Source: a virus. Taken from it: a stretch of DNA of 64,000 nucleotides. The notes below the pieces were generated by a model. It was not told the DNA's origin, did not search any database, and saw nothing but the letters and a program-made list of their open reading frames with translations. Shown here piece by piece: positions 5,194 through 64,000 of this stretch. The stretch lies in IMG/VR virus record IMGVR_UViG_3300045988_016718. One strand, written 5' to 3'. The translations under genes and the position numbers were made by a program. Every line of letters starts with the position of its first letter. Position 1 is the first letter of the stretch.

Positions 5194-5211
5194 CATACAT
5201 ACAACTAAATT

Positions 5212-22234: not shown

Positions 22235-22246
22235 GCAAGAAAAAAT

Positions 22247-22276
22247 AAAGGGAGATAGAATTAACTATCTCCCTTT
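22247..22276. terminator. Bidirectional rho-independent terminator at the convergence point
   Basis: Perfect 12-bp stem AAAGGGAGATAG / CTATCTCCCTTT with a 6-nt loop, an A-run upstream and a T-run downstream. It lies between the plus-strand stop (22234) and the minus-strand stop (22282). Confidence 0.8.
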
Positions 22277-22281
22277 TCTTT

Positions 22282-25200
22282 TTATCTAGCATCCATTTTA
22301 AACCACCTTGCTGGTTGGTCAGGGTCAAGTGCATTAAGTACTTGTTTCCTGAATGGAAGTAAATCAAATATGTATTTTTCAGCTTTGGTGTATCCCTTAT
22401 ATGGTCCAGTCTCAATGACTTCATTATAGCTTTCAGGATAGAACAACTTGATTACATTCCTTAATTTCTTCATTGTAGGAATAATAACAGTTGGGTCATC
22501 AAGTAGCTTAAGAGATTCATCAAGCATTGTAGGACTTGGAAGCATAACACCAATATCACTCTTTAGCCTTAGAGCTGAATATGCAGCCATTCTAAGTACC
22601 CAAGGTTTATCTTCATCATCACCACCTGCTTCTTCAAGCAGACCAAGTAACAATGTAAGACCAATATAGGTTCCTATCTCCATTAATCCCTTTCTGATAT
22701 TACCTTTCTCAAGAGGAGTAAGCCCCTTCCATTGACTGATAATATCAAACTCCGATTGCTTGATGTCCTTATACATTTGCTTCAAGAACCTGTAACCAGT
22801 TTGGTAATAACCCTCTGTATAGTCCTGTAAGTCAAAGTTATATTTACCTCTACCAAATCTATTTAACCATAATGGTCTCATCCAGTCTCTATACATCATA
22901 GCCATTCTACCAACTGCTAGTTGTTTTGCAGCTATTCTGTCCTCACTGTTATATATACCATACAGGTTATTTTCAATACCTCTTACTCTATTTGAGAAAG
23001 CAAGTATATCATCTTGAGTAAACTGACTTCCATCAGCCTTTGTTACACCTTTCTTAAGCTGTAATTTAGCACCCATGTTCTTGTTTTTCCCATCAATAGG
23101 AACTACTTCAAGTGCATTCCAAAGACTAATGTTATTACCATTTGCATCCTTCAATTTGAACCTGTCAGCAAGAGCAATAGCAATCCTGTTTTGTGTCCAA
23201 TGGTCACCGGCTTGAGTAGTGAAGAATATAGCATTTTCTCCTATTAATCTTGTTGCCCAAGTCTTTTTGTTCCAATTCACATTTCTGACACTTTGCTTGT
23301 AGTCCTGTTGAACATTAAACAATTCATCAAATAGTGCAATCTTGCTTGTCTTGATTCTATTACCAATCTCTGCAAGATATGCTGGAAGATGAGTACCATA
23401 TTCCTTATCAGCATAAGCTAATTCCAAGTGATTGAAGAACCTGCCTGATGCAGCTTCAATGTTACTTGTTGCAAAGTTCTGTAACATGTTGGCTGTACCT
23501 GTGAGTAAGCTAAGAGCTGTAGTACTGTAACTTGTCATCTTCATAAGCAAAGCCACTGCCTTATTGGTATCAATCTTACTCTCACCAATAGTGCCACTAT
23601 CCTTCATGTATCTACCATATACTTGCATCTCCATGAATGAATTAAGCTTATCCATGAAGAAAGAGTTACTGCCTTTCTTAGTTAATAGGTTCTTTACTTC
23701 AGCCCCTAATACTTTGAATCCTTCAACTCTTCTTCTATCACCTTCAAGGTCTGCTACTTTCCTTTCAGCAAGCACAAGTCTGCCTACTTCAAGTGTATCA
23801 AGTACTTCATTCATTCTATTGAAATCATTGACCATAGAAGCATAAGCTATCATAGATGATGTAGAGTCAAGAGACAAGTCTCTCATATCCTCAAGTTGTC
23901 TTGTATAATATATGGGTAACTTATTAACTGGATTACCCTCAAAGTCCATTAGTACAGACTTATCATCCTTATATTGTACATCAACATCATCTTCTCTTCT
24001 CACTAAGGTATCCTTCATAGTTTCCCAAAAGTATTTGGCTTTGTTACCACTTCCTAGCATCCTTTGTAAGAAGTCTCTCCTAATCTGTGGTGCCCTATTT
24101 ACTTTGGTATATTCCTGTGGCAGGATATTATCTAACTTAGCCTTGAGGTCCATAATGAACTTGTAATACTCCTTTTGTGCAGAATTAAGGCTTGCAAATG
24201 CCTTGCTCTTGTATTTAGTCATGCTAGGGACAATATTGTTATGTTCGTCCCTGCTACTGTTTTCTGCATACCATATAGCTATTTCCCTTGACCTTTCAAG
24301 TAAGTCCTCACCTTCAGGATTCTCTCCATACTTATTCTTAAGATAATCATTGAACTTTCTCTTTTCAGCCCTATATGTTGCCCAGTCCACAGGTTGTACA
24401 AAGTAACCTGTTGGTACACCATTGGCATCTCTTTCATACATCCAGTCAGTATTCTTGATACCAGCTTTCTCAAGTTTCATAGCAGCATATTCAATATCCT
24501 TTTGCATATTGATAGTATCCTGTCTAGCTTCAAACTTTTGCTTCTTGACTACTTGGTCATAGATTTGTAACATAGGGTCTGAACTGTCAGCCATACTGTC
24601 AAGCCATCTGTCAAAGAAAGTAATGTCTCTGTCCATTGAAGTAACAAGTTCTTCTGCTGTATAAGTCTTTTTGTACTTATCTCTAGCAATAGTGATACTT
24701 AATCCTTCACCAACAAATGGTTTAATAAAATCAGTAAATAATGTCTTACTTACATCATAGAAGTCAGCACTTAAATCCTGTATGATAACAGTATTCTGGT
24801 CAAGAAGATTCCTCAACTTATCCTTGAATCTATTATCACCTTCTGCTGATGCAGCATTCATATCCTTCCTGATTTCAAGTATGATACTACCATAAGATGA
24901 CATATAGTTTCTGATGTTCCTTAATGCAGACATCTTCTCATTGAGAGGTGCATCCATATCCACTACTGTACTTAATCTGCCTTGTAGCTTCTCAAGTACT
25001 CCAAGACTGGTTTGTATATACTTATAAATACCTTCCAGTGCTTGATTTTCTGCAATAGATTGATTCAACTCTTCAATATATGCTTGCTGGGATGCATTAA
25101 AGTCTTCCTTCTTACCATATATCTTCAACCTCTTAAGCTCTTGTTCTATGATTCTATTAAGTAGATTGACATCTCTGTCAACCTTAGAAGTAAGACTGTA

Positions 25201-37108: not shown

Positions 37109-37552
37109 TTAACCAATTATATGTTTATATTTTTCATAAGTGGCTCTTATGACTTCTTCACCTATTGGATTCTCTCTTTTGGAGTCTCTCTCAATACAAA
37201 CCTCAAGAGGAGTAAAGAAGTCCTTATACTCTATAATATAATGCTTACAAGAATCATCTTCAAACCTATCATGATGAGCTGCCATATCTCTATAGGCTAC
37301 ATACTCATGGCTACTTAAGTTCATATTATCTATAACTATATCGTAACCATCATCCATAGCTTTATGTACAAAAGAGTCTCTTAAGAATCTTACAAGACTT
37401 TCCCTTGATGTAACCCAATATTTACCAAGCATATTTCTGATGTCATCATTGTTGAATCTTACTCTATGCTCTGGGTCTTCAAGCACCCATTTTCTAGCCC
37501 AAGTAGACTTACCACTACCTTGTATTCCTCTACATAATATAATCTTAGGCAT
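37109..37552 (-). CDS. P-loop kinase resembling the T4 polynucleotide kinase (Pnk) kinase domain
   Basis: The ATG at 37552 gives 'MPKIILCRGIQGSGKSTWARKW..FNNDDIRNML'. 'VIDNMNL' and 'ERDSKR' parallel the T4 Pnk N-terminal kinase domain. No phosphatase domain is present. Confidence 0.65.
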   Translation of the reverse strand: MPKIILCRGIQGSGKSTWARKWVLEDPEHRVRFNNDDIRNMLGKYWVTSRESLVRFLRDSFVHKAMDDGYDIVIDNMNLSSHEYVAYRDMAAHHDRFEDDSCKHYIIEYKDFFTPLEVCIERDSKRENPIGEEVIRATYEKYKHIIG

Positions 37553-37880
37553 TGTCACACTTCTTTTGATTGTCCATCCACATGACAGTCATCACACAGT
37601 AGTTAGCCATATCAAGTAATGTGTCTCTGATAGACTCATCCTTAACTAATGCTTCCTCACCTTTGGACAACTTCTTGAATCTTAACCACTTATCACCTAG
37701 TCTGATTCTTGCAGCAGCAAGACCTTCCTCATTACATGACCTTTCAAATGAATTACCATAATCATGATTCTTCTTCACAAAGGTTTCAATCATACCTTTG
37801 ACTATCCCTGTAAAGTCATGTGCTGGACTAGCTAATGTTGCAGTGCTTGTTTCCTCTGCTACCTTTATCATTTCTTCCAT
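37545..37880 (-). CDS. DUF1599-like / MazG-clan all-alpha nucleotide-associated protein (putative)
   Basis: 'KKNHDYGNSFE..GLAAARIRLGDKWLRFKKL..ESIRDTLLDMANYCVM' fits the DUF1599 pattern (K..DYG...R..DK..R...D.l.D..nY). The track start is a TTG at 37907, and I use the first ATG at 37880. The start remains uncertain, because 37871 is also an ATG. Confidence 0.5.
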   Translation of the reverse strand: MEEMIKVAEETSTATLASPAHDFTGIVKGMIETFVKKNHDYGNSFERSCNEEGLAAARIRLGDKWLRFKKLSKGEEALVKDESIRDTLLDMANYCVMTVMWMDNQKKCDNA

Positions 37881-38148
37881 TCTTCTTCCATTGTTTATAT
37901 GTTTCAAACTTGACTATAAAGTCATTTTCTTCTCTCACAAACAGCTGACCTGACTTAAGACTTCTATATGAAATACCTTCAACCCATTTCCTAGTTGTAG
38001 GGTCTTTAATCAGGCACTTCTCACATAGAAAGTACTGATTACCCTTGTATACATATACCTTGGTCTTTTCAAGTTTATCAGCTATAAACCACATAAGGAA
38101 CAGTAGACCTATTAAGCCTACTGTCACTATAGTTGCTATTATAATCAT
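37828..38148 (-). CDS. Small membrane protein (N-terminal TM helix)
   Basis: 106 aa with its ATG 1 nt after the polymerase stop. 'IIIATIVTVGLIGLLFLMWFI' is a TM segment. The 3' end overlaps the next gene by about 50 nt. Confidence 0.5.
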   Translation of the reverse strand: MIIIATIVTVGLIGLLFLMWFIADKLEKTKVYVYKGNQYFLCEKCLIKDPTTRKWVEGISYRSLKSGQLFVREENDFIVKFETYKQWKKNGRNDKGSRGNKHCNIS

Positions 38149-38149
38149 A

Positions 38150-40540
38150 TCAATGAATCCAAAATTTACCTACTTCTGCTTCAGCAGGAATAGGAAGTTT
38201 AGTACAAAATACACCTGCTGCTTCTTCCATAAAGAACTTAAGTTTATCTGCTATTTCTGGCATAGATTCAGGATACTCAATACATGCTTCATCATGCACT
38301 AAATTTACTATCTTAACTATTCCAAGCAGGTTGTTTTCAACAATCCATTTAAAGAAGTTAGTCATAGCATATTTAAGTATGATAATGCCTGTGCCCTGTG
38401 TAGGTGAATTAAGACCTAATCTACCCCATTTACTAACAGCCTTGAAGTGAAGAGATACTCTTCTTTTCATCCAAGTCTTATGAAATTCATCACCAAGTTC
38501 TTCCTTCTTTCTTCTATATTCATCCCAGAAGTCACTGTCAAATTTAGCACCTTCAATTAACCAATATGAATGGTCACTCCAGTACACCTTATGTCCAGTT
38601 AAAGGATTAATAAGAATATACCCATTCTTCTTTACAGACTCTAAAGCTCTCTTACCAAAGGCAGTTACCCCCGGAAAACCCTTATCATAAGCATCACCAA
38701 TCTTGTCAGCTTCCTCTATTGGGATACCTAAAGAATCTGCAATTGAAGAGGAGCCACCACCAAACTGTTTAGCAAACTCTGGTGCTTTGGCTTTCTTTCT
38801 TAAATCAGGTCTTTTCTTCTTGATATCCTTAACTTCAATACCCTTAAGTTCTTCAGGAAAACATGCCTTGGCTACCAGAGAATGCATATCACCTGAACCA
38901 TGAACAAACTCATGAATCATTGACTTCTCATTATAAATGTCAGCCCCTAATCTTGATTCAAGTGCACTATAGTCACAACTACAGAATAGGTTTCCTTCCT
39001 CACATATAAAACAACTTCTTGTTCTATTGTTGCCCGGCAAATTCTGTACTTGAGGATAAGCACATTTGAGCTTATTGTTCTTGGTATTAAGTGGTAGCTT
39101 CTTTAGCCTAGCCAAGTCAGTGTTAACCTTTTGAGAACCACATGACATTCTGCCTGATGATGCACCAAGTTGCTTGAATACAGTATGTATCCTTCCTGTC
39201 TTAGGATTAATAGCATTAAGGTATGATTGTCCATAAGTAGAACATACCTTATCAGCTTCCTTATAGTCAAAGTAGACCTTAAGGAAAGCATCATTAATGC
39301 CCTTTTGTTTGGATAGTACCTTTTCAAGTGCTGAATCAGCTTCTTCTCCTGTGCTCTTACTGATGATTGTAGTGTTGAATCCAAGTGTCTTAAGAATAGG
39401 AACAACTTGTCTTGAACTATCCCAGTTAATCACACATATTGGTTCAGTATTAAAGCCTGAAAACAAGTCACCTTGCCTGTTTATCATAACATATTTACTA
39501 GGGAGTCTCTTCTTAATCTTACATTTGTAAGCTTCAAATTGTGCTCCACAAGAATCTGTTATGTCAAGCTCTGGTGCTCTAAGTTCATTCTTAAATGACT
39601 TTCTTTCATCTTCTATATCATCTTCCTCTTTGTCAGACAATGATATATAGGCTGTGAAATACTCCTTACCAGTACATGAACTGACTATGAAGTCATTAAG
39701 TGAACTAAGAAACACTTTCTGAATCACTTCATCAAATACCATCTTCTTCTTCCACTTGACTTCATCAAGTTTAATACCACACCATTCAAGATAAGATATA
39801 ACAGGCACAAATTCACATTCAAGTCTTGCCCCATTAAGTAAGCCCTTAGCTCTAAGGACCTCAACCTGTTTGTTCATTATAGCCCCAAGATACATGACAT
39901 CTCCTGCTGCATATTTAATGACAGAAGTATCAATACCTCTCCATATAATTTCACCTCTGACTGTCTTGTCAATATCTATTCCTAGATACCTGTAAGCAAT
40001 AGCCTTTAAGGATGCTCCTGAATGGTTGTATATAAACTCTGCTACATCAGGTACATTGTTATACAGTAATGCTTTCTTTGTATCAGAGTCAAGCTTGTCA
40101 TATCCTTCATAGTTATAGGCAAAGTCACAATATTGGTTCATTGTTTCATTGTCCATACCTACTAGAAAGAATGGATAACCAAGATAGATTAACTGTTCCA
40201 CAATCATAGTATCATAGCATTGAGTAACTATTATACCATAATTAAAGAGAAACTGTAAGTCAAACTTTAGATTCTGACCTATCATAAAATGAGTCTCAAT
40301 GTACTCTTTGTATACCAAAGGAGAAATAGTGGTAACATCTACCACTATTTGATTCTCCCCTTCAATATCTCCAAATTGCATCATCAAAACATCATTAATA
40401 TGTACATCCCTGCCATTAGTTTCAGTATCAAACTGAAACATATTCCAAGCAGACAGCATTCTTAATGATTCCTCTACACTTATCTTGGTATAGGCATCAT
40501 CAGTGAATAGTTCAGATTGACCACTTACAAAATAAATCAT
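38150..40540 (-). CDS. Family A DNA polymerase with 3'-5' exonuclease domain
   Basis: 796 aa. The motifs are Exo I 'FDTETNG', motif A 'CDYSALESRLGA', motif B 'RKKAKAPEFAKQFGGG' and motif C 'LVHDEACIE'. Confidence 0.9.
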   Translation of the reverse strand: MIYFVSGQSELFTDDAYTKISVEESLRMLSAWNMFQFDTETNGRDVHINDVLMMQFGDIEGENQIVVDVTTISPLVYKEYIETHFMIGQNLKFDLQFLFNYGIIVTQCYDTMIVEQLIYLGYPFFLVGMDNETMNQYCDFAYNYEGYDKLDSDTKKALLYNNVPDVAEFIYNHSGASLKAIAYRYLGIDIDKTVRGEIIWRGIDTSVIKYAAGDVMYLGAIMNKQVEVLRAKGLLNGARLECEFVPVISYLEWCGIKLDEVKWKKKMVFDEVIQKVFLSSLNDFIVSSCTGKEYFTAYISLSDKEEDDIEDERKSFKNELRAPELDITDSCGAQFEAYKCKIKKRLPSKYVMINRQGDLFSGFNTEPICVINWDSSRQVVPILKTLGFNTTIISKSTGEEADSALEKVLSKQKGINDAFLKVYFDYKEADKVCSTYGQSYLNAINPKTGRIHTVFKQLGASSGRMSCGSQKVNTDLARLKKLPLNTKNNKLKCAYPQVQNLPGNNRTRSCFICEEGNLFCSCDYSALESRLGADIYNEKSMIHEFVHGSGDMHSLVAKACFPEELKGIEVKDIKKKRPDLRKKAKAPEFAKQFGGGSSSIADSLGIPIEEADKIGDAYDKGFPGVTAFGKRALESVKKNGYILINPLTGHKVYWSDHSYWLIEGAKFDSDFWDEYRRKKEELGDEFHKTWMKRRVSLHFKAVSKWGRLGLNSPTQGTGIIILKYAMTNFFKWIVENNLLGIVKIVNLVHDEACIEYPESMPEIADKLKFFMEEAAGVFCTKLPIPAEAEVGKFWIH

Positions 40541-40807
40541 TTATTCAAATGTTACACTATAACCCTTCCCCATGATATGAACAATAGACTTGACAACTGC
40601 ATCAGCTTCTTCAAGTCTCTCACCTTCAACTATCATTGGTCCACCTGATGGGTCTATGAATTTCTTGCCACCTGCCATGCCAGACCTTATCATTTGGTCA
40701 CTAGTCTTTAACAGGTAAGTCTTTGATTCTTCTCCATTAGGTTTCTTCAATAGTTTAAGGGTATTATTCTCACCATACCTTGAGTTAAGTTTGATTAATT
40801 CTTTCAT
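40541..40807 (-). CDS. Hypothetical protein
   Basis: 88-aa ORF packed directly against the polymerase start. No motif was recognised. Confidence 0.55.
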   Translation of the reverse strand: MKELIKLNSRYGENNTLKLLKKPNGEESKTYLLKTSDQMIRSGMAGGKKFIDPSGGPMIVEGERLEEADAVVKSIVHIMGKGYSVTFE

Positions 40808-41313
40808 GTTGTTGAGTAGGCTACCAGTTCATCAAAATCAATCACATATTTGTACTTTTGAAAGAAGCTATTACCTAATACACCATGCAGGTTTACTCCA
40901 CTTTCTTCCTTAATCATACCAAAGGTATTACTTAAATCAAGTACTTGGAACATATCAGCATAATCCACTCCTTTATACTTTAAATCTATACTGACATAAC
41001 TGACTTCAACTTGTGCACCACCTGCACCATATACAGTACCTTCAAGGTTAAGCTTTGTATGTTCAATAGTATCAAGTAAGTTACTATCTATGATACAATA
41101 ATTAGCACCAGTATCAAGCAAGAAGTTCAACTTCTTACTACCTACTTGAAAGGTAATAATTGGCAGGTCTACCAAGTCCATAGTCTCTCTGAAAGAAATC
41201 TTTCCTGCTGGGTCAATATTCTTTCTATGTCTAGCTTTTTCAACAATGTATGCAATTGCTGCAATAGCAAGCACTAACAACACTGTGAATATCAGTTTAT
41301 AAATAAACTCCAT
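40804..41313 (-). CDS. Membrane-anchored retropepsin-like aspartic protease
   Basis: 169 aa with an N-terminal TM helix ('LIFTVLLVLAIAAIAYIV'). This is followed by 'KLNFLLDTGANYCIIDS' (DTGA active site) and the 'GVLGNSFFQKYKYVIDF' pattern typical of clan AA single-lobe proteases. Confidence 0.7.
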   Translation of the reverse strand: MEFIYKLIFTVLLVLAIAAIAYIVEKARHRKNIDPAGKISFRETMDLVDLPIITFQVGSKKLNFLLDTGANYCIIDSNLLDTIEHTKLNLEGTVYGAGGAQVEVSYVSIDLKYKGVDYADMFQVLDLSNTFGMIKEESGVNLHGVLGNSFFQKYKYVIDFDELVAYSTT

Positions 41314-48096: not shown

Positions 48097-48893
48097 ATCT
48101 TCATATATTCTCTCATAAGTCCAATGTTATCCTTTAGGAAACTATTGACTTCTTCATCATTGAAGTGAGATAAATCAGGCATATCAGGTTTATGAATGAA
48201 CCTATCACTTACATCAGCTACAATAATTTCAGGCATCTTCTTTACAAATTGAGTTCTTGGTCCATCAGGAAAGTTGAACTTATTAATCACTGAAGAAGTC
48301 ATTGCACTAAGAGATGCCCCATGTGTTATTACAGTAGGTATGAGCTTCTTAAGGATATTCTTCTCAACTGGTCCATCACCTGTAAACACTTTAGGACTGA
48401 TATACATAACTGACTTTATGAGTTCAGGATAGTTGTTAGTTAAGTTATACTTGATAGTATTTAATAACAGCAACTCCATTTGACTGTTGAATATGACACC
48501 AGCACCACCATAATATACAAGATCTGCATTAGTTGTTACTTTACATAACTTATAATGAGTAGATGTCTCAAGCATGGCTCTTATCATAGAATCTGATGTT
48601 CTTTTGGTCTGTTCCATGCCAACAAATAGAGGAGTGATATAACATTCAACAATCTCATCTTCATGTCCAGCAGTAATCCTAAGGTCCCTATTACTAACAA
48701 GAATATCTTGAACCTCTCTTCTACAGAATACAGGAACTTCAACTTCATCACCTCTCAGGTCTACCTCAAAGAATCTTTGAAATACATTGTTACCATTGAA
48801 GTTAGTGATATCAGTGTCAATAGGTCTTGTGTATGAAGTATTTCTAGTAAAATCAAGACTTGCTAGTACTGTTCTTTCATATATTCCTGCCAT
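48093..48893 (-). CDS. Hypothetical protein, last gene of the E1/JAB cluster
   Basis: 266-aa ORF. Its ATG overlaps the E1-like stop (TAATG), and its own stop overlaps the UDG ATG (ATGA). No motif was recognised. Confidence 0.55.
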   Translation of the reverse strand: MAGIYERTVLASLDFTRNTSYTRPIDTDITNFNGNNVFQRFFEVDLRGDEVEVPVFCRREVQDILVSNRDLRITAGHEDEIVECYITPLFVGMEQTKRTSDSMIRAMLETSTHYKLCKVTTNADLVYYGGAGVIFNSQMELLLLNTIKYNLTNNYPELIKSVMYISPKVFTGDGPVEKNILKKLIPTVITHGASLSAMTSSVINKFNFPDGPRTQFVKKMPEIIVADVSDRFIHKPDMPDLSHFNDEEVNSFLKDNIGLMREYMKI

Positions 48894-50221
48894 TACATTT
48901 CAACTTTAAAATACATTGTATCAGCTGCAAAGGAAGTGTAGAATGGCACATCTCTTGGCATAATAGGATTACACTCATTGGCTACAAAATTTACAAAGAT
49001 GTTGACCATAAGTGATGCAATCATATTAGCCATGAATGTAGTCTGTTTATAACTACATACAGTAGCATCAGCAGCTGCATCACTAAATAACCACTCTCTT
49101 TGATACTGTTCCATTGCTCTTGTGTCATTACCTTGAATAGCCAAAACCTGTAACTCTTCTGCTGCAAGTCTACCATCAATAAGCAAGCATTTACCTCTTT
49201 CTTCTTCTGGTTTAGACATTACATGAGCACACCATTTACTAAATACAAGTTTCCTTGCAGCCATGTTATCAAATCCACAAATCATGATATCATCAACACC
49301 ACTGGTTTCATCATAAAGCCTATTCATAGCAATAATACTATGATAGTCAGCATAATTAGCCACCATATCAGCAAGAGCATCAACCTTTGGATTGCCAATG
49401 TCACTTCTGCCATATAACTGACCTGACATATTGACAGCTTCAACAACATCATTGTCATAGATAATAAGTCTTGCTGGTTTCATTCTAGCTAACAAGAAGC
49501 CAATATAACTACCAATACCACCAACACCAGCTAAGATAATGTTCTTAGTCTGTAGTTGTTCATACCATATTGCACCACTGAACCTTGTAGTGGTTTCATC
49601 AACTGCCAAAGACCCTGAGTTAAGAGGAATCTCAATATGATTAGCTAATGCAAAGGCTCTACCTTTAGCATCTGCTTCATCAAATCTTGTACTCCAATAG
49701 TTATTAACCCAAAACTCTTTCATGTTGTTACCTGCACCAGCGTTGTTCTCTTTAAGAACAATTCTCCATACACCATTATTAGGTGCACTTGCATCACTTC
49801 TTTCACGACGATGAAGTGCTCTGTTTGCTTTTTGGATTATGTACCAAGTACCTGCTTCAATTCTCTTGATATATGTTTCAAGTTCTGTAGGTCTACCTTG
49901 TGGACTATAGCCACAACATACATAATCATTCTCATAACCTAAAGGTGGTTCTGGTTCTGGTGGAACTGGCAAAGGTTGTTCAGGCACAGCTACAGGTACA
50001 GGCTCAAGTTCAATTTCTCCATTAGCAGTCACTTCTTCCATAGCTGCTTGAAGTTGTTGCATTAACTCTATTGATTCAGGAGTTAATTCCACTTCAATAC
50101 CATTAGGAGCACTAAGACTCTGTGCTATGGAAGACTCTGTGGATACTACTCCTTCAGTAATTTCACGAGTTATTATTCTTCTTAGCTGCTCAACAGCAGC
50201 ATCTCTTATTTCTTCATTCAT
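48893..50221 (-). CDS. ThiF/MoeB/E1-like adenylyltransferase with unassigned ~200-aa N-terminal extension
   Basis: 442 aa. The Rossmann motifs are 'NIILAGVGGIGSYIGFLLA', 'IIYDNDVVEAVNMSGQLYGRSDIGNPKVDAL' and 'CGFDNMAARK', which fit the E1-family pattern. Confidence 0.75.
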   Translation of the reverse strand: MNEEIRDAAVEQLRRIITREITEGVVSTESSIAQSLSAPNGIEVELTPESIELMQQLQAAMEEVTANGEIELEPVPVAVPEQPLPVPPEPEPPLGYENDYVCCGYSPQGRPTELETYIKRIEAGTWYIIQKANRALHRRERSDASAPNNGVWRIVLKENNAGAGNNMKEFWVNNYWSTRFDEADAKGRAFALANHIEIPLNSGSLAVDETTTRFSGAIWYEQLQTKNIILAGVGGIGSYIGFLLARMKPARLIIYDNDVVEAVNMSGQLYGRSDIGNPKVDALADMVANYADYHSIIAMNRLYDETSGVDDIMICGFDNMAARKLVFSKWCAHVMSKPEEERGKCLLIDGRLAAEELQVLAIQGNDTRAMEQYQREWLFSDAAADATVCSYKQTTFMANMIASLMVNIFVNFVANECNPIMPRDVPFYTSFAADTMYFKVEM

Positions 50222-50232
50222 GTTTAAATCTC

Positions 50233-51522
50233 CTATAAAATATAATCATCAAGGAGCTTGATGTATAATTTAAGCCACACATTGGTAGGCAACTCCATAA
50301 GAGCATTTCTTACTTCATAAGCAAGAATAGCTATCATCTCTGTATCATCAAGCACATTAACCAATGTTTCATCTGTTGTATAATTGACAAGGAAATCAAC
50401 ATGATTTGATGCCCAATACTCAAACTCCTTAACAGAATCAAATCTGTCAGAGTAGAACTTATCCATGCTGCCTGCCCACTTGTTGATATCTACCTTATTA
50501 TCAACAGGAAGAATAATACTACCTGTGATAATCTGTTTAACCAGCCAGTCAATGACTTTAGCATCAGCCCTTACAACATTATAAGGGATAGCATAATCAG
50601 AAGCTTCAAATGGAAGCTCCTTTTGAGTTGGAGCAGCAGTTTCTTTAGCTTGTCCTTGAAAGGGATAACTAGATTTATGTTCTTCAAACTCTTTCTTAGG
50701 TTGACCAAACTGACTTGGGGGTACATAAGTTCCACCTGTTGCTGGTTTCCCAGTAGCAGCACCTACTGTTTGAAGTCCGGGGTATCTACTCTGATATGCA
50801 CTGGTTCCATAGCTATTGTAACCACCATAAGTAGCACTGGGTGTATATACTTTCTTAGCTTTCTCTGCATCAATCTCTTTCATGCGAGCAAGCATTTCCT
50901 TCTCAACTTCATCAACAGGAACAGTCTCTTTCTGAATCTCAAGAGGGAACCATTCAAGATACTCTTCTTCAGCTTCAAATTCATCAGTACCTTTGATTTC
51001 TCCTTCTTTCCAAGTAGGGTAAGTAAACTCTTCTTTCACCTGTTGTTTAGCCTTATACCTTCTGGTAACTGCTGCACTATAAGTACCAGCATTGTTTACA
51101 ATCAAAGACACAAAGTGTGCCATATCTTCACCCTCTTGACTTAATGTTCCTGTATCAGTTCCACTAAAGAAAGTAGCCATATTGTTATGACTATGAATAA
51201 GCCCTTGGAACACATCTTCACTAAGCAATTCAGGATGGTCAATCATATAACTTACTATGTCAGGTGACACATTAAATTCAGTATAACCACCAGTTCCTTT
51301 GTCCATCTGAAAGATGTCCACACACTTGATAGTCAAAGGATTGTCTTTATCATTAAAAGCACCTTCAACTTGATAGAACAGTACTCCTGACCATTCTACT
51401 TGGCTAATGTGAGTACACAATAACCTGATTTTCTTTTCTACCTCTACAGGTATGATTATTTTATAGGGTAAATCTGGTTTTCTTTTTATCAATTCCAGAC
51501 TTGGCTTTTTTGCTGTTTCCAT
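50233..51522 (-). CDS. JAB/MPN (JAMM) metallopeptidase domain protein with long C-terminal extension
   Basis: The track start is a GTG at 51528, and I use the ATG at 51522 ('METAKKPS'). 'VEWSGVLFY' supplies the Glu, and 'HSHNNMATFFSGTD' is an exact HxHx7Sx2D motif (nt 51154-51195). The start overlaps the upstream ORF by 62 nt. Confidence 0.8.
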   Translation of the reverse strand: METAKKPSLELIKRKPDLPYKIIIPVEVEKKIRLLCTHISQVEWSGVLFYQVEGAFNDKDNPLTIKCVDIFQMDKGTGGYTEFNVSPDIVSYMIDHPELLSEDVFQGLIHSHNNMATFFSGTDTGTLSQEGEDMAHFVSLIVNNAGTYSAAVTRRYKAKQQVKEEFTYPTWKEGEIKGTDEFEAEEEYLEWFPLEIQKETVPVDEVEKEMLARMKEIDAEKAKKVYTPSATYGGYNSYGTSAYQSRYPGLQTVGAATGKPATGGTYVPPSQFGQPKKEFEEHKSSYPFQGQAKETAAPTQKELPFEASDYAIPYNVVRADAKVIDWLVKQIITGSIILPVDNKVDINKWAGSMDKFYSDRFDSVKEFEYWASNHVDFLVNYTTDETLVNVLDDTEMIAILAYEVRNALMELPTNVWLKLYIKLLDDYIL

Positions 51523-52753
51523 ATTCACAATTTAATAATTCTAATATTGCACAAACATACTCTCTTACTATATCTGTATTGAGTATTGTAGATGTATTTC
51601 TTACACCAGTTGCTAATCCATTGATTACAAGATTAACATCCTTGCCTTTAAAGGTTAATACCTTCCTTCCTACATATTGACTATAGTCCCTACTTGCATT
51701 TGAATTAGGGTCAAATATAGCACCATTAGCTATGATAGCCTGTTTAAGCACACCATCACCTTGAAGGTCATATAAAGCTGGCATATTTGGTGCTTTTCTA
51801 TACTCATCATTATACCAGTCAATGAAAGCATTACTTATGGTCAACACAGTATCAGTGAATGTATGAGCCAATCCATAGGAACCTTTTCTATAGTTGAACT
51901 TAAGTATGTTATTGGTAAACAAATAATCAAGGAACTTACTTGATAATTCCTTTGTGAAATACTCCTTCGAGATATGATTGTTCTGTTCTATAGGAAAGTT
52001 ATCCCTCTTGTTACTACCATTAGCACCAATATTCTCCATTCTTCTATAAGGACCACCAGTAAGCGATTCTGTACCCATATACCTTTCAAGTTCAAGACAG
52101 AATAACTGCCATATAGGTTCATCAAATCCTACTGTAAGACTGCTCATAGTATTATTGATAGGACCACTACCAGTACATACACTTCTGAACTTAAATTCAA
52201 AGTCAATACCACTTACATGAGAGTGCATATAGTCAGACTGCATATGTACAACATCATACTCTGACCTGTTCATTTTGAACCAGCCTTTGCCTTTACCTTC
52301 CCATGTTACAGGAACCTTTGCCCACAGATTATCAACTTCTACAGTTCTATCATATTCATTCCTGATAGTCACATGAGGAAAATGTATTATAATAGGTATA
52401 TCTATGAACCACCTATTCCCTATGAACTCTTTCATATAAGGAACAAATCTATCAAATATTGCCACACTTTCAGTTACAGGATACCTGTGCATCGTATTCC
52501 TAAAATCTGAAATTATATCCTCATTATGATTGCTCCTCATATAAGAGCTGGTTGCAAAGGTGCTTGCACTGCCTCCTACTAAATCATACATAGAATATTC
52601 ATTCAAGACACTAATAAAGTCTTCCAAGCTAATAGGCTGTAAATCAACTCTTTCCTCACCATAGAAGTCATTGAATATCTCTGTAACTGCTCTTGGTAGT
52701 TCAAGCAACTCTCGATAGAGAGTCTCTACTTTCTGTTTTAATTCTTCATTCAT
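51461..52753 (-). CDS. Hypothetical protein of the E1/JAB cluster (weak E2-like active-site resemblance)
   Basis: 430-aa ORF with an ATG start. The stretch 'YMHSHVSGIDFEFKFRSVCTGSGP' (nt 52162-52233) follows several predicted beta strands and loosely recalls the E2 HPN...Cys flap. This is only a hypothesis. Confidence 0.4.
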   Translation of the reverse strand: MNEELKQKVETLYRELLELPRAVTEIFNDFYGEERVDLQPISLEDFISVLNEYSMYDLVGGSASTFATSSYMRSNHNEDIISDFRNTMHRYPVTESVAIFDRFVPYMKEFIGNRWFIDIPIIIHFPHVTIRNEYDRTVEVDNLWAKVPVTWEGKGKGWFKMNRSEYDVVHMQSDYMHSHVSGIDFEFKFRSVCTGSGPINNTMSSLTVGFDEPIWQLFCLELERYMGTESLTGGPYRRMENIGANGSNKRDNFPIEQNNHISKEYFTKELSSKFLDYLFTNNILKFNYRKGSYGLAHTFTDTVLTISNAFIDWYNDEYRKAPNMPALYDLQGDGVLKQAIIANGAIFDPNSNASRDYSQYVGRKVLTFKGKDVNLVINGLATGVRNTSTILNTDIVREYVCAILELLNCEYGNSKKAKSGIDKKKTRFTL

Positions 52754-60057: not shown

Positions 60058-60535
60058 TGTTTATCCCATTTACCAATGTTTTAACTTTACTAATATAGTT
60101 TGGGTCCTCTGCATACCCTATCTCTTCAAGGAATTGATAGTAGTTATTCGGGGGCTTGTATCTATATTGTATGCAGTTAAGATAGGCAACCACACTCTCT
60201 GTCCAATGATTGAACTTAAAGTAGTCCTTATTCTTACTGTCATATAAACCAAACAGGTTATTATATTCCCTGAACACTTTGGACCTAAAGTGTCCTGTTT
60301 CAAGAATAGCCTGTGCTCTCACTATGTCCGGGTACATGACACCATAATAGTTAAGAACCTTAGGTAAATCCTTTTCAGGATTATCTGACATTAAGAACTC
60401 TGGTTGCTCTAACTTAATGCACTCCACTTTTGGTGGATGCTCCAGCTGTGCTATCTTCTTGTGTATCACCCATGATGAATAGGCATTAACTGAAAGAAGA
60501 ATAGCACAAGCCAGACATGTTATAATATGTTTCAT
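60044..60535 (-). CDS. Secreted or anchored N-acetylglucosaminidase-type (GH73-like) peptidoglycan hydrolase, probable endolysin
   Basis: 163 aa with an N-terminal signal/anchor 'MKHIITCLACAILLSVNAYS'. 'RAQAILETGHFRSKVFREYNNLFGL' fits the glucosaminidase/FlgJ pattern (LETG...NN.FG). Confidence 0.7.
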   Translation of the reverse strand: MKHIITCLACAILLSVNAYSSWVIHKKIAQLEHPPKVECIKLEQPEFLMSDNPEKDLPKVLNYYGVMYPDIVRAQAILETGHFRSKVFREYNNLFGLYDSKNKDYFKFNHWTESVVAYLNCIQYRYKPPNNYYQFLEEIGYAEDPNYISKVKTLVNGINNDKG

Positions 60536-61650
60536 CTCACTTGTTTTAAATTAGACTCTTGGCTGTCATTGTAGAATACTCTGTCATATGACAGGTCTGT
60601 ATACTCATCAACAGTTGTTGCTATAGTCTCATGTGTTGGTGCAACTACATAGTCAAATAAATCTTCTCCCATATAGTCAAATCTTCCACTATCCACTATG
60701 ACATCAGTATGAGTAACCACAAGGTTGTACTTTAGATTGTACATCAATTTGTAGTTATCAAGTCTGTGTCTTTCAGCAGCTCTGCGGAGTAATCCTGTCT
60801 CCAAGCATCCTACTTTGAAGTCAAGTTGAAACTCATTAAAGGTATTTGATTCCTTGAATTTCTCAAGGTTGGCTTCAAGTTTGTACTTGGGTTCATACCC
60901 ATTTCCATGTCTGGTAAGGTAACTTCTGGTCACAAGGTACACCTCTGCATCTTTAAGATACTTCTTTGGTACACCATTGAGACCAACTCTTGAAGGAGTT
61001 ACATGAGGATAGAAACCACAGTCCATATCAAGTAGAAGACCTTGTGAGCCTTCAAATATGAGAACATCATACAAACTTAAGTTACTTTGATTGAATGAGA
61101 CACACTTGGCACAGTATATAAACTGTTCTTCAAATGATGTATCTTCTTCAACTTCATAATATTCTCTTACCTTCTTAATATGTTCATACTTATCCATAAC
61201 CCATGCACCATAGCCATTGCCTTCATTGTATCTCTTGAATGTAGGATATATGCCCATACCACAAGTACCATCAGATAAGACTTTGTTGTCCTCTCTGCCT
61301 GCAAATACATCATAAGGTGTAATGACTCTGTTAAACATTGAAGCATAAACAAGAGTTTCTTTGATGCCCTTCTTTTGAAGGACTTTCCTCTCATTGTATA
61401 ATGCAATTGGGTCAATGAATACATCATCAGTATAGTATGTGGGCACACCAAGTAATACACCAGAACCAAAGGATGAACATATATGTTCAATGCCTTCATT
61501 AACTACTGTATGTCCTGCTTGTGGTCCACCACTGAATCTCACAACTGCAACACTTTTTCCTTCTTCAATGGCTTTCTTACATAGCCATTGAACAGTTACA
61601 CCTTTACCTTCATCTCCAAAGGCATAACCCAGTACAATCTTTACTTCCAT
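60532..61650 (-). CDS. Divergent adenylosuccinate synthetase family protein (PurA/PurZ-like)
   Basis: 372 aa. 'GYAFGDEGKGVTVQWL', 'GGPQAGHTV', 'GTCGMGIYP', 'LIFEGSQGLLLDMDCGFYPHVT' and 'TRSYLTRHGNG' align by eye with the E. coli PurA motifs. The 'TTGRRRR' Asp/IMP loop is replaced by 'QLDFKVGCLE'. Confidence 0.7.
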   Translation of the reverse strand: MEVKIVLGYAFGDEGKGVTVQWLCKKAIEEGKSVAVVRFSGGPQAGHTVVNEGIEHICSSFGSGVLLGVPTYYTDDVFIDPIALYNERKVLQKKGIKETLVYASMFNRVITPYDVFAGREDNKVLSDGTCGMGIYPTFKRYNEGNGYGAWVMDKYEHIKKVREYYEVEEDTSFEEQFIYCAKCVSFNQSNLSLYDVLIFEGSQGLLLDMDCGFYPHVTPSRVGLNGVPKKYLKDAEVYLVTRSYLTRHGNGYEPKYKLEANLEKFKESNTFNEFQLDFKVGCLETGLLRRAAERHRLDNYKLMYNLKYNLVVTHTDVIVDSGRFDYMGEDLFDYVVAPTHETIATTVDEYTDLSYDRVFYNDSQESNLKQVR

Positions 61651-61651
61651 T

Positions 61652-62512
61652 CTATCTCAAATGAGTTATAGTTTCACTTTCACTTTTGGTACCTTCTTGC
61701 ACCGCAGGCTTAGCCTTTGTAGCATAGTAGGACTTTAGTACAATACCTGATATGATTTCAGGTATTTCTTTTCCAGTACTGTCTTCTGTATGAATTACAT
61801 GGTCTCCCAAGTAATCCTCAAGACCTTCTTTCACGGATGGTCTGCCACCACTATGGTCATTCAAGTTGATGTGATATACATCCCATGATTCCTTTGCAGC
61901 TTCAAGTAAACTTGAACTTGTTACATCAGCTTCTGGGGTTTCACCAAACAATTGTTTGATACTTGATGCACCAATTGTACCATGAATAGGCTCATCACCA
62001 ATAGTAATAAGTACTCCCTTTTTGCCTCTCTTCAAGGAATCAATGGCAGTATGGAAGGCACCAAAGTACCATGCAAGTGAATATGATTCACCATTATTTC
62101 CACCACCTCTTCCTTCAAGCCAGATGAGCTTAAGCCACTTGTCAAGCAGTTCATCTGATGATTCAAATTGTCCTACTTGAATAGGTGCTCTATCAGTATA
62201 ATGGTCACCAATACCAACAAAGCATACTTGAAGGTCTTGTACACCTTCATCCATAATCTTCTTCATCAGTTTAGGGAAACCTTCTGAAATAAGCTCATAA
62301 GGGATTCTACCCATACTACCTGTGACATCAAGAGCAATGATAACAGGGAAACTGTTAGGATGTTCTTCACTATCCCTTGCTTCCCTTACCTTGTCTTTGA
62401 TACTCATTTCCACACTCATGTATCTTTGGGAGAATACTTCCTCTCTGTCCTGTTTGCTATAGTCCTGTGCCATTGACATAGACCTAGCATAGCTGTAATT
62501 TCCGCCACCCAT
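61652..62512 (-). CDS. von Willebrand factor A (vWA) domain protein
   Basis: 286 aa. 'VIIALDVTGSMG' is a DxT/SxS MIDAS motif, with the later 'GGGNNGESYSLAWYF' and 'VLITIGDEP' strands. Confidence 0.65.
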   Translation of the reverse strand: MGGGNYSYARSMSMAQDYSKQDREEVFSQRYMSVEMSIKDKVREARDSEEHPNSFPVIIALDVTGSMGRIPYELISEGFPKLMKKIMDEGVQDLQVCFVGIGDHYTDRAPIQVGQFESSDELLDKWLKLIWLEGRGGGNNGESYSLAWYFGAFHTAIDSLKRGKKGVLITIGDEPIHGTIGASSIKQLFGETPEADVTSSSLLEAAKESWDVYHINLNDHSGGRPSVKEGLEDYLGDHVIHTEDSTGKEIPEIISGIVLKSYYATKAKPAVQEGTKSESETITHLR

Positions 62513-62916
62513 TATTCGATAGTTGATTTCCAGTTAGGTAATACCTTGAGGATAATGCTCTTGTCAGCAATAGCACCAAAAAGGTACTCATATCTGGCAA
62601 TAACAATCTCAAGTTTGATAATAGCATCTCTCTTATTCAGACCAATCTCTATATCCTTTCTCATGAAAGCAACAGGGTCAAAGTCTGATGGCACAACAGC
62701 ACCATTGCCGGCACTCATAGGAGATAAATCCAGCAACAGATTCTCTCTGTCTCTGTCAAAGTTACGAATCTTATGACATAAGTCTTCAATTTCTCTCTTG
62801 TAGATGATTTCTACATCTTCTGATACACTTTCAGCTCTACTCTCTTTGAGTTGTCTGAATGTTCTCATCAAGTCTTGTTTAAAGACTCCATGCTTGTTTT
62901 CTTCCAATTCTGCCAT
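62512..62916 (-). CDS. Hypothetical protein
   Basis: 134-aa ORF, coupled by a TAATG overlap at both ends. Confidence 0.55.
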   Translation of the reverse strand: MAELEENKHGVFKQDLMRTFRQLKESRAESVSEDVEIIYKREIEDLCHKIRNFDRDRENLLLDLSPMSAGNGAVVPSDFDPVAFMRKDIEIGLNKRDAIIKLEIVIARYEYLFGAIADKSIILKVLPNWKSTIE

Positions 62917-63266
62917 TATACTTTTCTATTTAACCATTTAATCCATCTTAAATAAGGTGCTCTTAACTCAAATCTTCTGTCAATTAGCTCATATCCATCC
63001 ATTCCATCTTTACCACTATATTGTAGGCAGTATGCAAGTACTGTTATTACTGAACATACAAGGTTTACGATGGGAATAACAGACACAGTACATGCTATAA
63101 TAATCATCCAAACAGGTACAGGAACTCTTTTATCATCTTCATCTACCCAAGGACTTTTGTTCCAACAGGTATATTCATCCTCTCTTTCTCTCTTCTGTGG
63201 ATAAGAAAAGAACATCAGTGTACCTAATATAAGTACACTGATTAAGAAACTAATTAACCAAAACAT
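62916..63266 (-). CDS. Small membrane protein (two TM segments)
   Basis: 116 aa. 'FWLISFLISVLILGTLMFF' and 'VWMIIIACTVSVIPIVNLVCSVITVLAY' are hydrophobic helices. Confidence 0.55.
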   Translation of the reverse strand: MFWLISFLISVLILGTLMFFSYPQKREREDEYTCWNKSPWVDEDDKRVPVPVWMIIIACTVSVIPIVNLVCSVITVLAYCLQYSGKDGMDGYELIDRRFELRAPYLRWIKWLNRKV

Positions 63267-63268
63267 AA

Positions 63269-64000
63269 TTACTGTCCTATATTCTTAAATAAGGTAGGAA
63301 CTTGACCATAAATAGGAAGTTTTCCATCCCATTTATCAATCCACATCTGCTCAAGAATAGCAGGAGTAAGAGCTTTAGTCTTAAGCTCATTAGCTTTATA
63401 TTCAGCTTCAGCAGCTACAATAAGTTTCTTGGCTTGTGCTTCTGCTACCCTGATTTCATTCTCTACTTTCATTGCATCCTGTACAGCCTTGTTCTTGGCA
63501 TTTACAGCCTCTACAATAGTTTGAGGATATTTGAGTCCAGAAGTTAGTTGCTCAAGTTGGAAGTTTTCTTTAAGTAATGCTGCTGACAAATGAGTCTCAA
63601 TTGCTCTTTCTATACTATCCCTATTACTTACAATATAATCAGTGGTGAAGTTATTCAATTGTATCCTAAAGGCATCCCTTACATAGTTGAATAGAGTTCC
63701 TTCAATAACTTCATTCAGTTCCTTTCTATACTTCTTGAATACTTCAGGAGACTTTCCATCAACTAATTTCAATGATATAGTAGGGTCTACAGTGAACTCT
63801 GAACCATCTTTGGCATTAATTGTAAATGCTGGATAATCTACAGTCTTCACATAAGTTTCATACTCATAGATAGCTGTAGTAACAGGATTGTAAAATACTC
63901 TACCTGTAACCAAAGCAATATCACCAACACCCTTGTCATTACCATAAAGGTTTACCTTGATACCTTCACAACCAGCATCAATTCTCTCACAAGATGATAG
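63269..64000 (-). CDS. SPFH/Band-7 (prohibitin-like) domain protein, 5' end outside the window
   Basis: The track 'M' at 63913 is a TTG. I translated the frame upstream and it stays open to nt 64000 ('..IDAGCEGIKVNLYGNDKGVGDIALVTGRV'). 'VENEIRVAEAQAKKLIVAAEAEYKANEL' and 'WIDKWDGKLP' fit the C-terminal SPFH/prohibitin pattern. Confidence 0.55.
   Translation of the reverse strand, partial: LSSCERIDAGCEGIKVNLYGNDKGVGDIALVTGRVFYNPVTTAIYEYETYVKTVDYPAFTINAKDGSEFTVDPTISLKLVDGKSPEVFKKYRKELNEVIEGTLFNYVRDAFRIQLNNFTTDYIVSNRDSIERAIETHLSAALLKENFQLEQLTSGLKYPQTIVEAVNAKNKAVQDAMKVENEIRVAEAQAKKLIVAAEAEYKANELKTKALTPAILEQMWIDKWDGKLPIYGQVPTLFKNIGQ

Follow-up and report, generated by a model that had tools for sequence, protein, structure and literature searches.

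Adenylosuccinate synthetase (PurA) transfers the gamma-phosphate of GTP to O6 of a 6-oxopurine mononucleotide. In a different group of systems, the MoxR-vWA pairs (CbbQ-CbbO and RavA-ViaA) and the chelatase I/D proteins, the gene for a P-loop NTPase is coupled to one for a vWA protein bearing a metal ion-dependent adhesion site (MIDAS), and vWA/MIDAS proteins are typical adaptors of P-loop NTPases. Examples of vWA adaptors working with P-loop NTPases are discussed elsewhere (PMC7824862). The phage-encoded PurA relatives PurZ and PurZ0 (6fm1, 7odx, 7vf6) are defined by a serine replacing the catalytic Asp13, in 100% of phage sequences (PMC12884076); a Ser14-to-Asp mutation abolishes PurZ substrate selectivity (bioRxiv 10.1101/2025.10.22.683976), and PurZ proteins strictly conserve a TTVT tip on their aspartate loop (PMC8342488). 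Here, we describe a PurA-like open reading frame (ORF) in a 64,000-nucleotide stretch of viral DNA (IMG/VR record IMGVR_UViG_3300045988_016718; hereafter the window), whose product differs from both PurA and PurZ and whose gene adjoins those of a vWA/MIDAS protein and a small helical protein. We consider the chances about even that the PurA-like gene provides the catalytic subunit of a conserved cassette of these three genes. That the enzyme is a GTP-dependent 6-oxopurine-nucleotide ligase, using a nucleophile other than aspartate and working with the vWA partner, is a proposal that we would put at evenly balanced. The combination of a rebuilt acceptor site with a vWA partner, in a member of the PurA superfamily, appears to be new; the PurA fold itself is already known.

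A PurA-like protein with a rebuilt acceptor site

The window derives from a crAss-like Bacteroides gut phage of the Steigviridae, with weak DNA matches to DAC15, DAC17, and PhiCrAssBcn, and its PolA and that of Kolpuevirus 'frurule' share 79.6% identity. The PurA-like product matches PF00709 (E = 9.9e-33; 113.9 bits, cut-off 27) and PHROG 1211 (E = 1e-42), which is labeled '2-aminooxy adenylosuccinate synthetase'. By sequence search its closest solved structure is Escherichia coli PurA (E = 2e-20), and the PurZ-type relatives PurZ0 (7vf6) and phiVC8 PurZ (6fko) score E = 0.004 and E = 0.79, respectively. An AlphaFold model built from 53 relatives (predicted local distance difference test [pLDDT] 90; pTM 0.91) gives Foldseek TM scores of 0.79 to E. 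coli PurA (1cg4), 0.70 to PurZ0, and 0.61 to 0.64 to PurZ. The initial annotation, made from the sequence, had called this ORF a 372-aa PurA/PurZ-family protein, and all of the motifs that it quoted were found in the protein, as follows.

60532..61650, minus strand: PurA-like enzyme, 372 aa; ORF with an ATG start, PF00709, AlphaFold model, member of the vWA-linked clade
61600..61617, minus strand: P-loop GDEGKG, residues 12-17, including Asp13 and Lys16, each kept in 141/142 of the clade
61507..61530, minus strand: GGPQAGHT, residues 41-48; His47 is the E. coli catalytic His41, and Gln44 stands in place of the inosine monophosphate (IMP)-phosphate ligand Asn38
61042..61044, minus strand: Gln203, the equivalent of E. 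coli Gln224 (O6/N7 contact of IMP); Gln in 142/142
60898..60915, minus strand: TRHGNG, residues 246-251; His248 in place of E. coli Val273, His in 142/142 and Val in PurA
60808..60840, minus strand: rebuilt loop FNEFQLDFKVG, residues 271-281, replacing the L-Asp loop GATTGRRRRTG in the alignment of the clade to E. coli
60703..60714, minus strand: THTD, residues 313-316, the counterpart of the PurA guanine-specificity motif TKLD; Asp333 equivalent in 138/142, Lys331 changed to Cys or His

Two further motifs lie at residues 128-136 (GTCGMGIYP) and 199-218 (FEGSQGLLLDMDCGFYPHVT). HMMER pairs E. coli NEFGATTGRRRRTGWLD with NEFQLDF----KVGCLE of the PurA-like protein, such that the equivalent of the aspartate loop reads F-Q-L-D-(deletion)-F-K; the previously reported absence of this loop is borne out by the alignment, though in a register a few residues away from that first given, and the reported change of TKLD to THTD also stands. 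AlphaFold confidence is reduced in the rebuilt loop (~72-73). At the C-terminal S-x-G-P position, the window protein has N-D-S-Q and most clade members have S-x-S-P. The protein was rightly described as short, being ~60 aa below E. coli PurA, but it is not truncated: clade members have a constant median length of ~371 to 376 aa, and a truncated gene or pseudogene is ruled out by this constancy, by the 3,851 homologues, and by the confident model. Among the matches listed from a search of 50,697 phage records, no homologue exceeds 33.5% identity.

Mapping of 142 clade members onto E. coli PurA numbering reveals a sharp division between kept and altered positions. His41 and Gln224 are kept in all 142 members, Asp13, Lys16, and Leu228 in 141 each, Thr239 in 139, and the guanine-recognizing Asp333 in 138. 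Asn38 has become Gln (139/142), Thr129 Cys (127/142), and Val273 His (142/142), with Lys331 replaced by Cys or His. At the aspartate contacts, Thr300 is replaced by an aromatic residue (Tyr, Phe, or Trp) and Thr301 by Gln (141/142), Arg303 is variable, Arg304 is deleted in 142/142, and Arg305 is replaced by Phe or Leu, giving a clade-wide motif, [YFW]-Q-G-x-[FL]-[RK]. The clade also has new invariant residues, Q44, H56 (138/138 in a separate alignment set), H248, and Q275. Because the catalytic residues are near-invariant and the acceptor site is replaced by a conserved motif, the phosphotransfer and purine-O6 machinery appears to be strongly selected, and the acceptor site rebuilt rather than lost. 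The predicted active site has all that is needed to phosphorylate, from GTP, a lactam O6 beside N1-H (Asp13, His41, and Gln224), and in the alignment the dicarboxylate-binding Arg and Thr residues are gone, with an invariant Gln, a His, and an aromatic residue in their place. A degenerate enzyme, one of the possibilities raised in the initial annotation, is therefore unlikely, with catalytic residues invariant in 141 to 142 of 142 members. Another of its suggestions, a non-aspartate nucleophile, is reasonable, since the aspartate-binding site is deleted while the phosphotransfer machinery is complete.

A clade separate from both PurA and PurZ

In a joint alignment, three patterns are seen at the P-loop and the aspartate loop. 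The PurZ and PurZ0 proteins of S-2L, phiVC8, Sapo, HunterDalle, and BCSR129 have GS[TE][GA]KG with TTVT..RR, the PurA proteins of E. coli, Listeria, and a Lak megaphage have GDEGKG with G[ATS]TTGR[RP]RR, and the window protein and its relatives have GDEGKG with the [YFW]-Q-G-x-[FL]-[RK] motif. A neighbor-joining tree (58 sequences, 351 columns, Kimura distances, 100 bootstraps) recovers the vWA-linked PurA-like proteins as a separate and monophyletic clade in 100/100 bootstraps. The Kimura distance from the window protein is 1.76 to PurA versus 2.84 to PurZ, with few outgroups and an insecure branching order outside the clade.

The window protein resembles E. coli PurA (EC 6.3.4.4; 1cg4 and 1ade) in its fold (TM 0.79), its PF00709 domain, GDEGKG, and the residues His41, Gln224, Thr239, and Asp333. 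The clade departs from it in the replaced and shortened L-Asp loop (T300, T301, and R303-R305), the changes N38 to Q, T129 to C, V273 to H, and K331 to H or C, the ~60 fewer residues, and the vWA/MIDAS neighbor. The initial annotation had allowed that proper alignment and a phylogeny might place the protein as an ordinary host-derived PurA with an intact aspartate loop; the loop stays missing when aligned, and such a PurA is ruled out by the clade-wide loop loss together with the separate position of the clade. Canonical PurA does occur in phages: the uncultured 735-kb megaphage LR756501 (locus L177, positions 3998-5197) encodes one with an intact GSTTGRPRR loop and no vWA neighbor. Phages can thus encode either type, a canonical PurA or an enzyme of the PurA-like clade.

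The initial annotation had framed the gene in terms of PurZ and 2-aminoadenine, in which case the enzyme would make the precursor of 2-aminoadenine, or of another modified purine, for the phage genome. The PHROG 1211 label points this way, as do the family-A polymerase and the DUF1599 protein encoded in the window, and the PurZ and PurZ0 proteins are likewise phage-encoded PF00709 homologues of similar length (340 to 390 aa). However, position 13 is Asp and not Ser, the TTVT loop is missing, the PurZ proteins are the most distant relatives in both sequence and structure, and the PHROG 1211 label extends to mycobacteriophage and Rhizobium phage proteins of the vWA-linked clade. PurZ genes lie in Z-clusters with DatZ/MazZ or DutZ/DmtZ; we found no gene for a DatZ-type HD protein (in agreement with the earlier remark that an HD dATPase is lacking), MazZ/DUF550, or DutZ/DmtZ among the 30 minus-strand ORFs that we scanned in the region from 37.5 to 63.9 kb, and the cassette is present in bacterial chromosomes too. 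A Z-genome reading is ruled out by the amino acid at position 13 and the loop, taken together with the tree and the neighboring ORFs that were scanned, and a PurZ-type activity for this protein is extremely improbable. Public annotations name the clade proteins either 'PurA-like adenylosuccinate synthetase' or '2-aminooxy adenylosuccinate synthetase'; both labels are contradicted by the residues and, we suggest, are very probably wrong. Hundreds of such phage annotations belong to the clade, among them those of cluster-C mycobacteriophages (~200), of phages of Rhizobium and Vibrio, and of many crAss-like phages from the gut, and PurA, PurZ, and the vWA-linked clade can be told apart by a simple sequence rule using residue 13, the loop motif, and an upstream vWA gene.

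A conserved cassette with a vWA/MIDAS protein

The PurA-like gene had been treated singly in the initial annotation, which missed entirely the two genes upstream that form a conserved cassette with it.

61652..62512, minus strand: vWA/MIDAS-fold partner, 286 aa; PHROG 2971 ('unknown function'), assigned by homology and Foldseek
62315..62329, minus strand: MIDAS-type motif D62-V-T64-G-S66 of the partner; D62 and S66 in 153/153, T64 in 152/153, with D173 also invariant
62501..62512, minus strand: partner N terminus M-G-G-G; M1 in 150/153, G2 in 151/153, Y6 in 144/153
62512..62916, minus strand: small helical protein, 134 aa; third cassette member, frequent but not universal

In the window, the small-protein stop and the vWA start share 1 nt, only 1 nt separates the vWA stop and the PurA-like start, and the start of the gene that follows overlaps the PurA-like stop; across loci, the median gaps between cassette genes are 0 to 3 nt. 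The PurA-like gene is thus predicted to be translationally coupled to the vWA and small-protein genes. The same order (a ~130-aa protein, a ~285-aa protein, and the PurA-like enzyme) is shared by other crAss-like contigs, a phage-like contig of 118 kb, and contigs from Bacteroidales chromosomes, and in related loci the vWA and small proteins are 45 to 78% identical to their counterparts (the small protein being compared in L007, L008, and L010).

The partner matches no Pfam family up to E = 10, no PDB entry by sequence, and no PADLOC profile, its only family being PHROG 2971. It is homologous to the product encoded immediately 5' of the PurA-like genes of three phages unrelated to one another, Vibrio phage Va1 (BLASTP, 6e-53), mycobacteriophage Pleione (6e-34), and Rhizobium phage Y65, and its homologue in a 176-kb fecal phage is likewise paired with a PurA-like gene. 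Foldseek matches of its AlphaFold model (pLDDT 85) are to integrin beta-I, vWF-A3, MDN1-MIDAS, and Rpn10 (E from 3.5e-5 to 1e-3; TMq ~0.4 to 0.54), and the model also resembles viral VWFA proteins. As modeled, the partner is a vWA alpha/beta fold with a MIDAS of the DxSxS...D type in which Thr replaces the first Ser. Its N terminus is predicted to be disordered, residues 1-3 having pLDDT <50. Other invariant or near-invariant residues among the 153 sequences are Q112, Q115, F116, E117, G136, G137, and E142. An exhaustive profile search recovers 724 partner clusters (50% identity) at E<=1e-30, a number that rises to 1,403 at E<=1e-10. With few exceptions these are standalone proteins of 280 to 320 aa, and nearly all hits have their first residue aligned to profile position 1.

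To describe the distribution of the cassette, we used two scans. The first, of bacterial and archaeal species genomes with the partner as query, gave 235 matches, of which 80 loci were fetched; these, with the window and loci fetched earlier, make up a set of 81 loci with a vWA-like protein, 76 of which have the PurA-like gene and 66 the small-protein gene, collinear and upstream of the vWA gene. The second, of IMG/VR viral contigs, gave 401 matches, and in the 80 loci fetched the order is small-vWA-PurA in 52, vWA-PurA in 22 (74/80 with either order), and other in 6; the small protein is collinear and upstream of the vWA gene in 55/80. In both scans, broad conservation at the loci is limited to the three families of the trio. 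The vWA and PurA-like pair is seen in crAss-like phages, Vibrio phage Va1, Rhizobium phages, cluster-C mycobacteriophages, jumbo-phage contigs, and bacterial chromosomes, and loss of the aspartate loop is accompanied by a vWA neighbor in all sequences inspected. No vWA-like gene was detected by hidden Markov model search of the fetched loci encoding intact-loop phage PurA or PurZ proteins (Lak, Sapo, HunterDalle, and BCSR129), and none is annotated beside purZ in S-2L or phiVC8.

Some of the ~100-kb contigs with the cassette that are assigned to bacterial metagenome-assembled genomes are probably crAss-like phages. Genuinely chromosomal loci are present in Chryseobacterium, Flavobacterium, and Tenacibaculum scaffolds and in the complete Electrothrix and Electronema chromosomes, and in chromosomal Bacteroidales contigs the cassette is flanked by transketolase and cytochrome-c biogenesis genes. 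In the window, its neighbors include glucosaminidase and helicase genes. The cultured crAss001-like phage PhiCrAssBcn2 has the same backbone (helicase, glucosaminidase, a 108-aa protein, and a 261-aa protein) without the trio, which is therefore an accessory insertion, and the cassette is horizontally mobile between phages and bacteria. Directly upstream of the cassette in the window are genes for a 116-aa predicted membrane protein (62916-63266, minus strand) and an SPFH/Band-7 protein (63269-63913, minus strand; E = 1.7e-16), both of which belong to the crAss backbone and are present in PhiCrAssBcn2.

The small protein has no Pfam, PHROG, or PADLOC family. In 12 viral loci, its place upstream of the vWA gene is taken by a family of 288- to 400-aa proteins, f4 (L105:6962-7996, L107:7135-8001, L118:6935-7999, and nine more); f4 was rejected as a homologue of the small protein, having no similarity to it and no Pfam domain. 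A known defense system was likewise rejected, the cassette proteins having no significant PADLOC match (the best is the small protein to PDC-M01A, E = 0.012), and NARP3 is unrelated to the cassette. We did not find the cassette of vWA, PurA-like, and small proteins described in the accessible literature. Loci with the small-protein gene, the vWA gene, or both and no adjacent PurA-like gene are L019, L020, L024, L025, L026, L032, L036, L053, and L069, and the viral L105, L106, and L111; at the Bacteroidales orphan-vWA loci, the next gene encodes a TonB-dependent receptor on the opposite strand. The orphan vWA proteins were checked for loss of the N-terminal and MIDAS motifs, and all motifs are kept, providing no discrimination.

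The cassette may be likened to the MoxR-vWA and chelatase I/D pairs, in that a P-loop NTPase gene is coupled to one for a MIDAS-bearing vWA protein, although its NTPase is a PurA-type SIMIBI ligase and not an AAA+ protein, and its vWA protein lacks a Pfam vWA match and has a family-specific N terminus. By this analogy, the PurA-like protein could be a repurposed GTPase or sensor that has given up ligation, its PurA fold kept for binding GTP and a purine nucleotide only, with the vWA protein as the adaptor through which it would regulate or remodel a target. The usual role of vWA/MIDAS proteins beside P-loop NTPases and the missing site for the third substrate would be consistent with this. However, Asp13 (the general base), His41 (the general acid), and Gln224, which are needed for chemistry and not for binding, are invariant in 141 to 142 of 142 members, and the new invariant H248 and Q275 line the former acceptor site. 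This combination suggests a reaction that has been changed and not lost, and we regard a pure GTPase or sensor as quite unlikely.

Genomic context of the cassette

All 24 of the Flavobacteriia loci, among the 80 bacterial loci, have the trio inside a co-directional cluster of NAD+/ADP-ribose genes. The cluster includes genes for NrtR (NUDIX plus wHTH), two or three NADAR proteins, a 2OG-Fe(II) oxygenase, Macro-like and microbial PARG proteins, DUF4291, two ADP-ribosylglycohydrolases (ARH), SIR2, Nampt-like and PRPP-synthetase-like proteins, Tpt1/KptA, and a calcineurin-like phosphoesterase. The Nampt-like and PRPP-synthetase-like proteins are the enzyme types of the phage NARP1 pathway, which rebuilds NAD+. 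We also considered tellurite-resistance TerD/TerY clusters, but these are ruled out, the repeated ~185-aa family being NADAR and not TerD. Such a context is seen in part in two phages: in Rhizobium phage Y65, genes for a phosphoribosyltransferase-like and an NMNAT/NUDIX protein precede the pair by a few kilobases, and Vibrio phage Va1 has a NADAR gene, and also a TROVE-like gene, nearby. Pleione has polynucleotide kinase and Ser/Thr kinase genes upstream.

TROVE and Ro60-type vWA genes (Ro60/Rsr-like, RNA-binding) lie within 8 kb of the cassette in 14/80 viral loci, in addition to Va1. The context points towards a conflict between phage and host over NAD+, ADP-ribose, or RNA repair, and not towards Z-DNA synthesis, albeit in a lineage-limited manner. 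A comparable association has been reported for other PF00709 genes, which adjoin a DarT-like ADP-ribosyltransferase family in 60% of cases (Lmac_3114 family; PMC12522546). These are PurA paralogues in an ADP-ribosylation and NUDIX setting, as in the Flavobacteriia clusters; no vWA protein is reported with them, and the likeness is one of gene context only.

Several individual loci have neighbors of note. In a close relative of the window, one of the 14 viral loci, a TROVE gene (L092:2514-3923) is ~4 kb upstream of the trio, and its equivalent would fall past window position 64000; further TROVE and Ro60-vWA genes are at L115:5247-6836 and L004:9369-10877. Directly downstream of a crAss-like TROVE gene is a 142-nt match to the Rfam tRNA model (L093:3948-4089; full model, 48 bits), about twice the length of a normal tRNA; it could encode a Y-RNA-like (YrlA-type) RNA that partners the phage Ro60. 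A hint of a defense-island setting comes from the Electrothrix laxa chromosome, where a SAVED plus 2TM gene of the CBASS effector type (L037:4711-5880) precedes the vWA-PurA-like pair by ~1 kb.

Proposed reaction of the PurA-like enzyme

We propose that the PurA-like enzyme would activate an IMP-type nucleotide with GTP to give a 6-phosphoryl purine nucleotide, and that the activated C6 would be handed to a nucleophile other than free L-aspartate, with the vWA partner either presenting the nucleophile or completing the acceptor site in trans. The invariant and flexible N-terminal glycine of the partner is one candidate for this nucleophile; the aspartate site of PurA has as its classical ligand hadacidin, a derivative of glycine. 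Other candidates are a carboxylate-bearing substrate that might be held on the partner's MIDAS metal, and a small amine such as ammonia. In its most specific and quite unlikely form, the proposal is that C6 of IMP, or of a related 6-oxopurine nucleotide, is joined to a protein amine, likeliest the partner's N-terminal Gly exposed after removal of Met, and that the resulting protein-N6-adenylate conjugate serves in conflicts of phage and host that concern NAD+/ADP-ribose or RNA repair.

Alternatively, the gene could be an auxiliary metabolic one, encoding a genuine adenylosuccinate synthetase that raises the supply of AMP and dATP for an AT-rich phage. L-aspartate would then be bound at a site of different build, which the MIDAS metal of the vWA partner might provide in trans, and host PurB would finish the pathway. 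All of the phosphotransfer and purine-O6 residues are retained, the clade branches closer to PurA than to PurZ, MIDAS sites bind carboxylates, and the window is 34 to 39% GC. Moreover, one 118-kb phage-like contig (L008:552-2499) has genes for an IMPDH/GMP-reductase-family protein (395 aa) and an NT5C 5'-nucleotidase 3.5 to 5.5 kb upstream of the trio, the sole purine-metabolism neighbors that we saw. Nonetheless, T300, T301, R303, R304, and R305 are lost or deleted in 142/142 members, and their aromatic, Gln, and hydrophobic replacements are ill-suited to a dicarboxylate; plain phage PurA, such as that of the Lak megaphage, keeps an intact loop and has no vWA neighbor. Neither the window nor any of the loci fetched has a PurB homologue alongside the cassette, and the Flavobacteriia setting is one of NAD and ADP-ribose handling, not of purine biosynthesis. 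A genuine synthetase is therefore an unlikely, though not fanciful, explanation.

Several observations also weigh against the proposed ligase and its setting. The physical interaction of the three proteins is suggested by gene order and coupling only, and the partner's invariant N terminus could serve binding or stability and not act as a nucleophile. The equivalent of the IMP-phosphate ligand Arg143 is insecurely aligned and T129 is Cys, such that the enzyme may act on a nucleotide other than IMP. About a quarter of the viral loci lack the small protein, as do Va1, Y65, and Pleione, and the vWA gene has no adjoining PurA-like gene at ~9 loci of rumen Bacteroidales and at a few viral ones. By BLAST, there is no NAD/ADP-ribose gene in the window; among bacterial loci this link is confined to Flavobacteriia, and Nampt-like or PRPP-synthetase-like genes are within 8 kb in only 3/80 viral loci. 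In most other lineages, the cassette's neighbors are unrelated to NAD/ADP-ribose or RNA repair.

With its vWA and small-protein neighbors, a puzzling lone gene becomes part of a defined, testable, and widespread system. If the rebuilt acceptor site does take a new nucleophile, the PurA reaction would gain a new class of product, and a role of the cassette in conflicts over NAD+/ADP-ribose or RNA repair would make it a new player in phage counter-defense. Were the product a protein-nucleotide conjugate, it would be categorically new, a protein-nucleotide ligation of a kind not described before.

Other features of the window

The family-A polymerase (38150-40540) and the DUF1599 protein listed in the initial annotation were both confirmed. 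The ORF of the latter, a 'nucleotide modification associated domain 1' protein, spans 37545-37907 (minus strand) and is just downstream of the polymerase gene, not adjoining the PurA-like gene. GC and AT skew flip sign at ~22000-22300, where the genes switch from a plus-strand to a minus-strand block, and the minus-strand block past ~22 kb contains ORFs of 1,346 and 2,364 aa together with the replication genes. A 169-aa ORF (40804-41313, minus strand) matches retroviral-type aspartyl protease families (Asp_protease_2, E = 5e-7) and lies beside the dUTPase and NrdG/NrdD genes, which is unusual for a phage replication module. Two adjacent ORFs (48893-50221 and 50233-51528, both minus strand) encode a ThiF/E1-like protein (E = 3e-18) and a weak match to Prok-JAB (E = 0.009), and could be a ubiquitin-like conjugation and deconjugation pair within the replication module.

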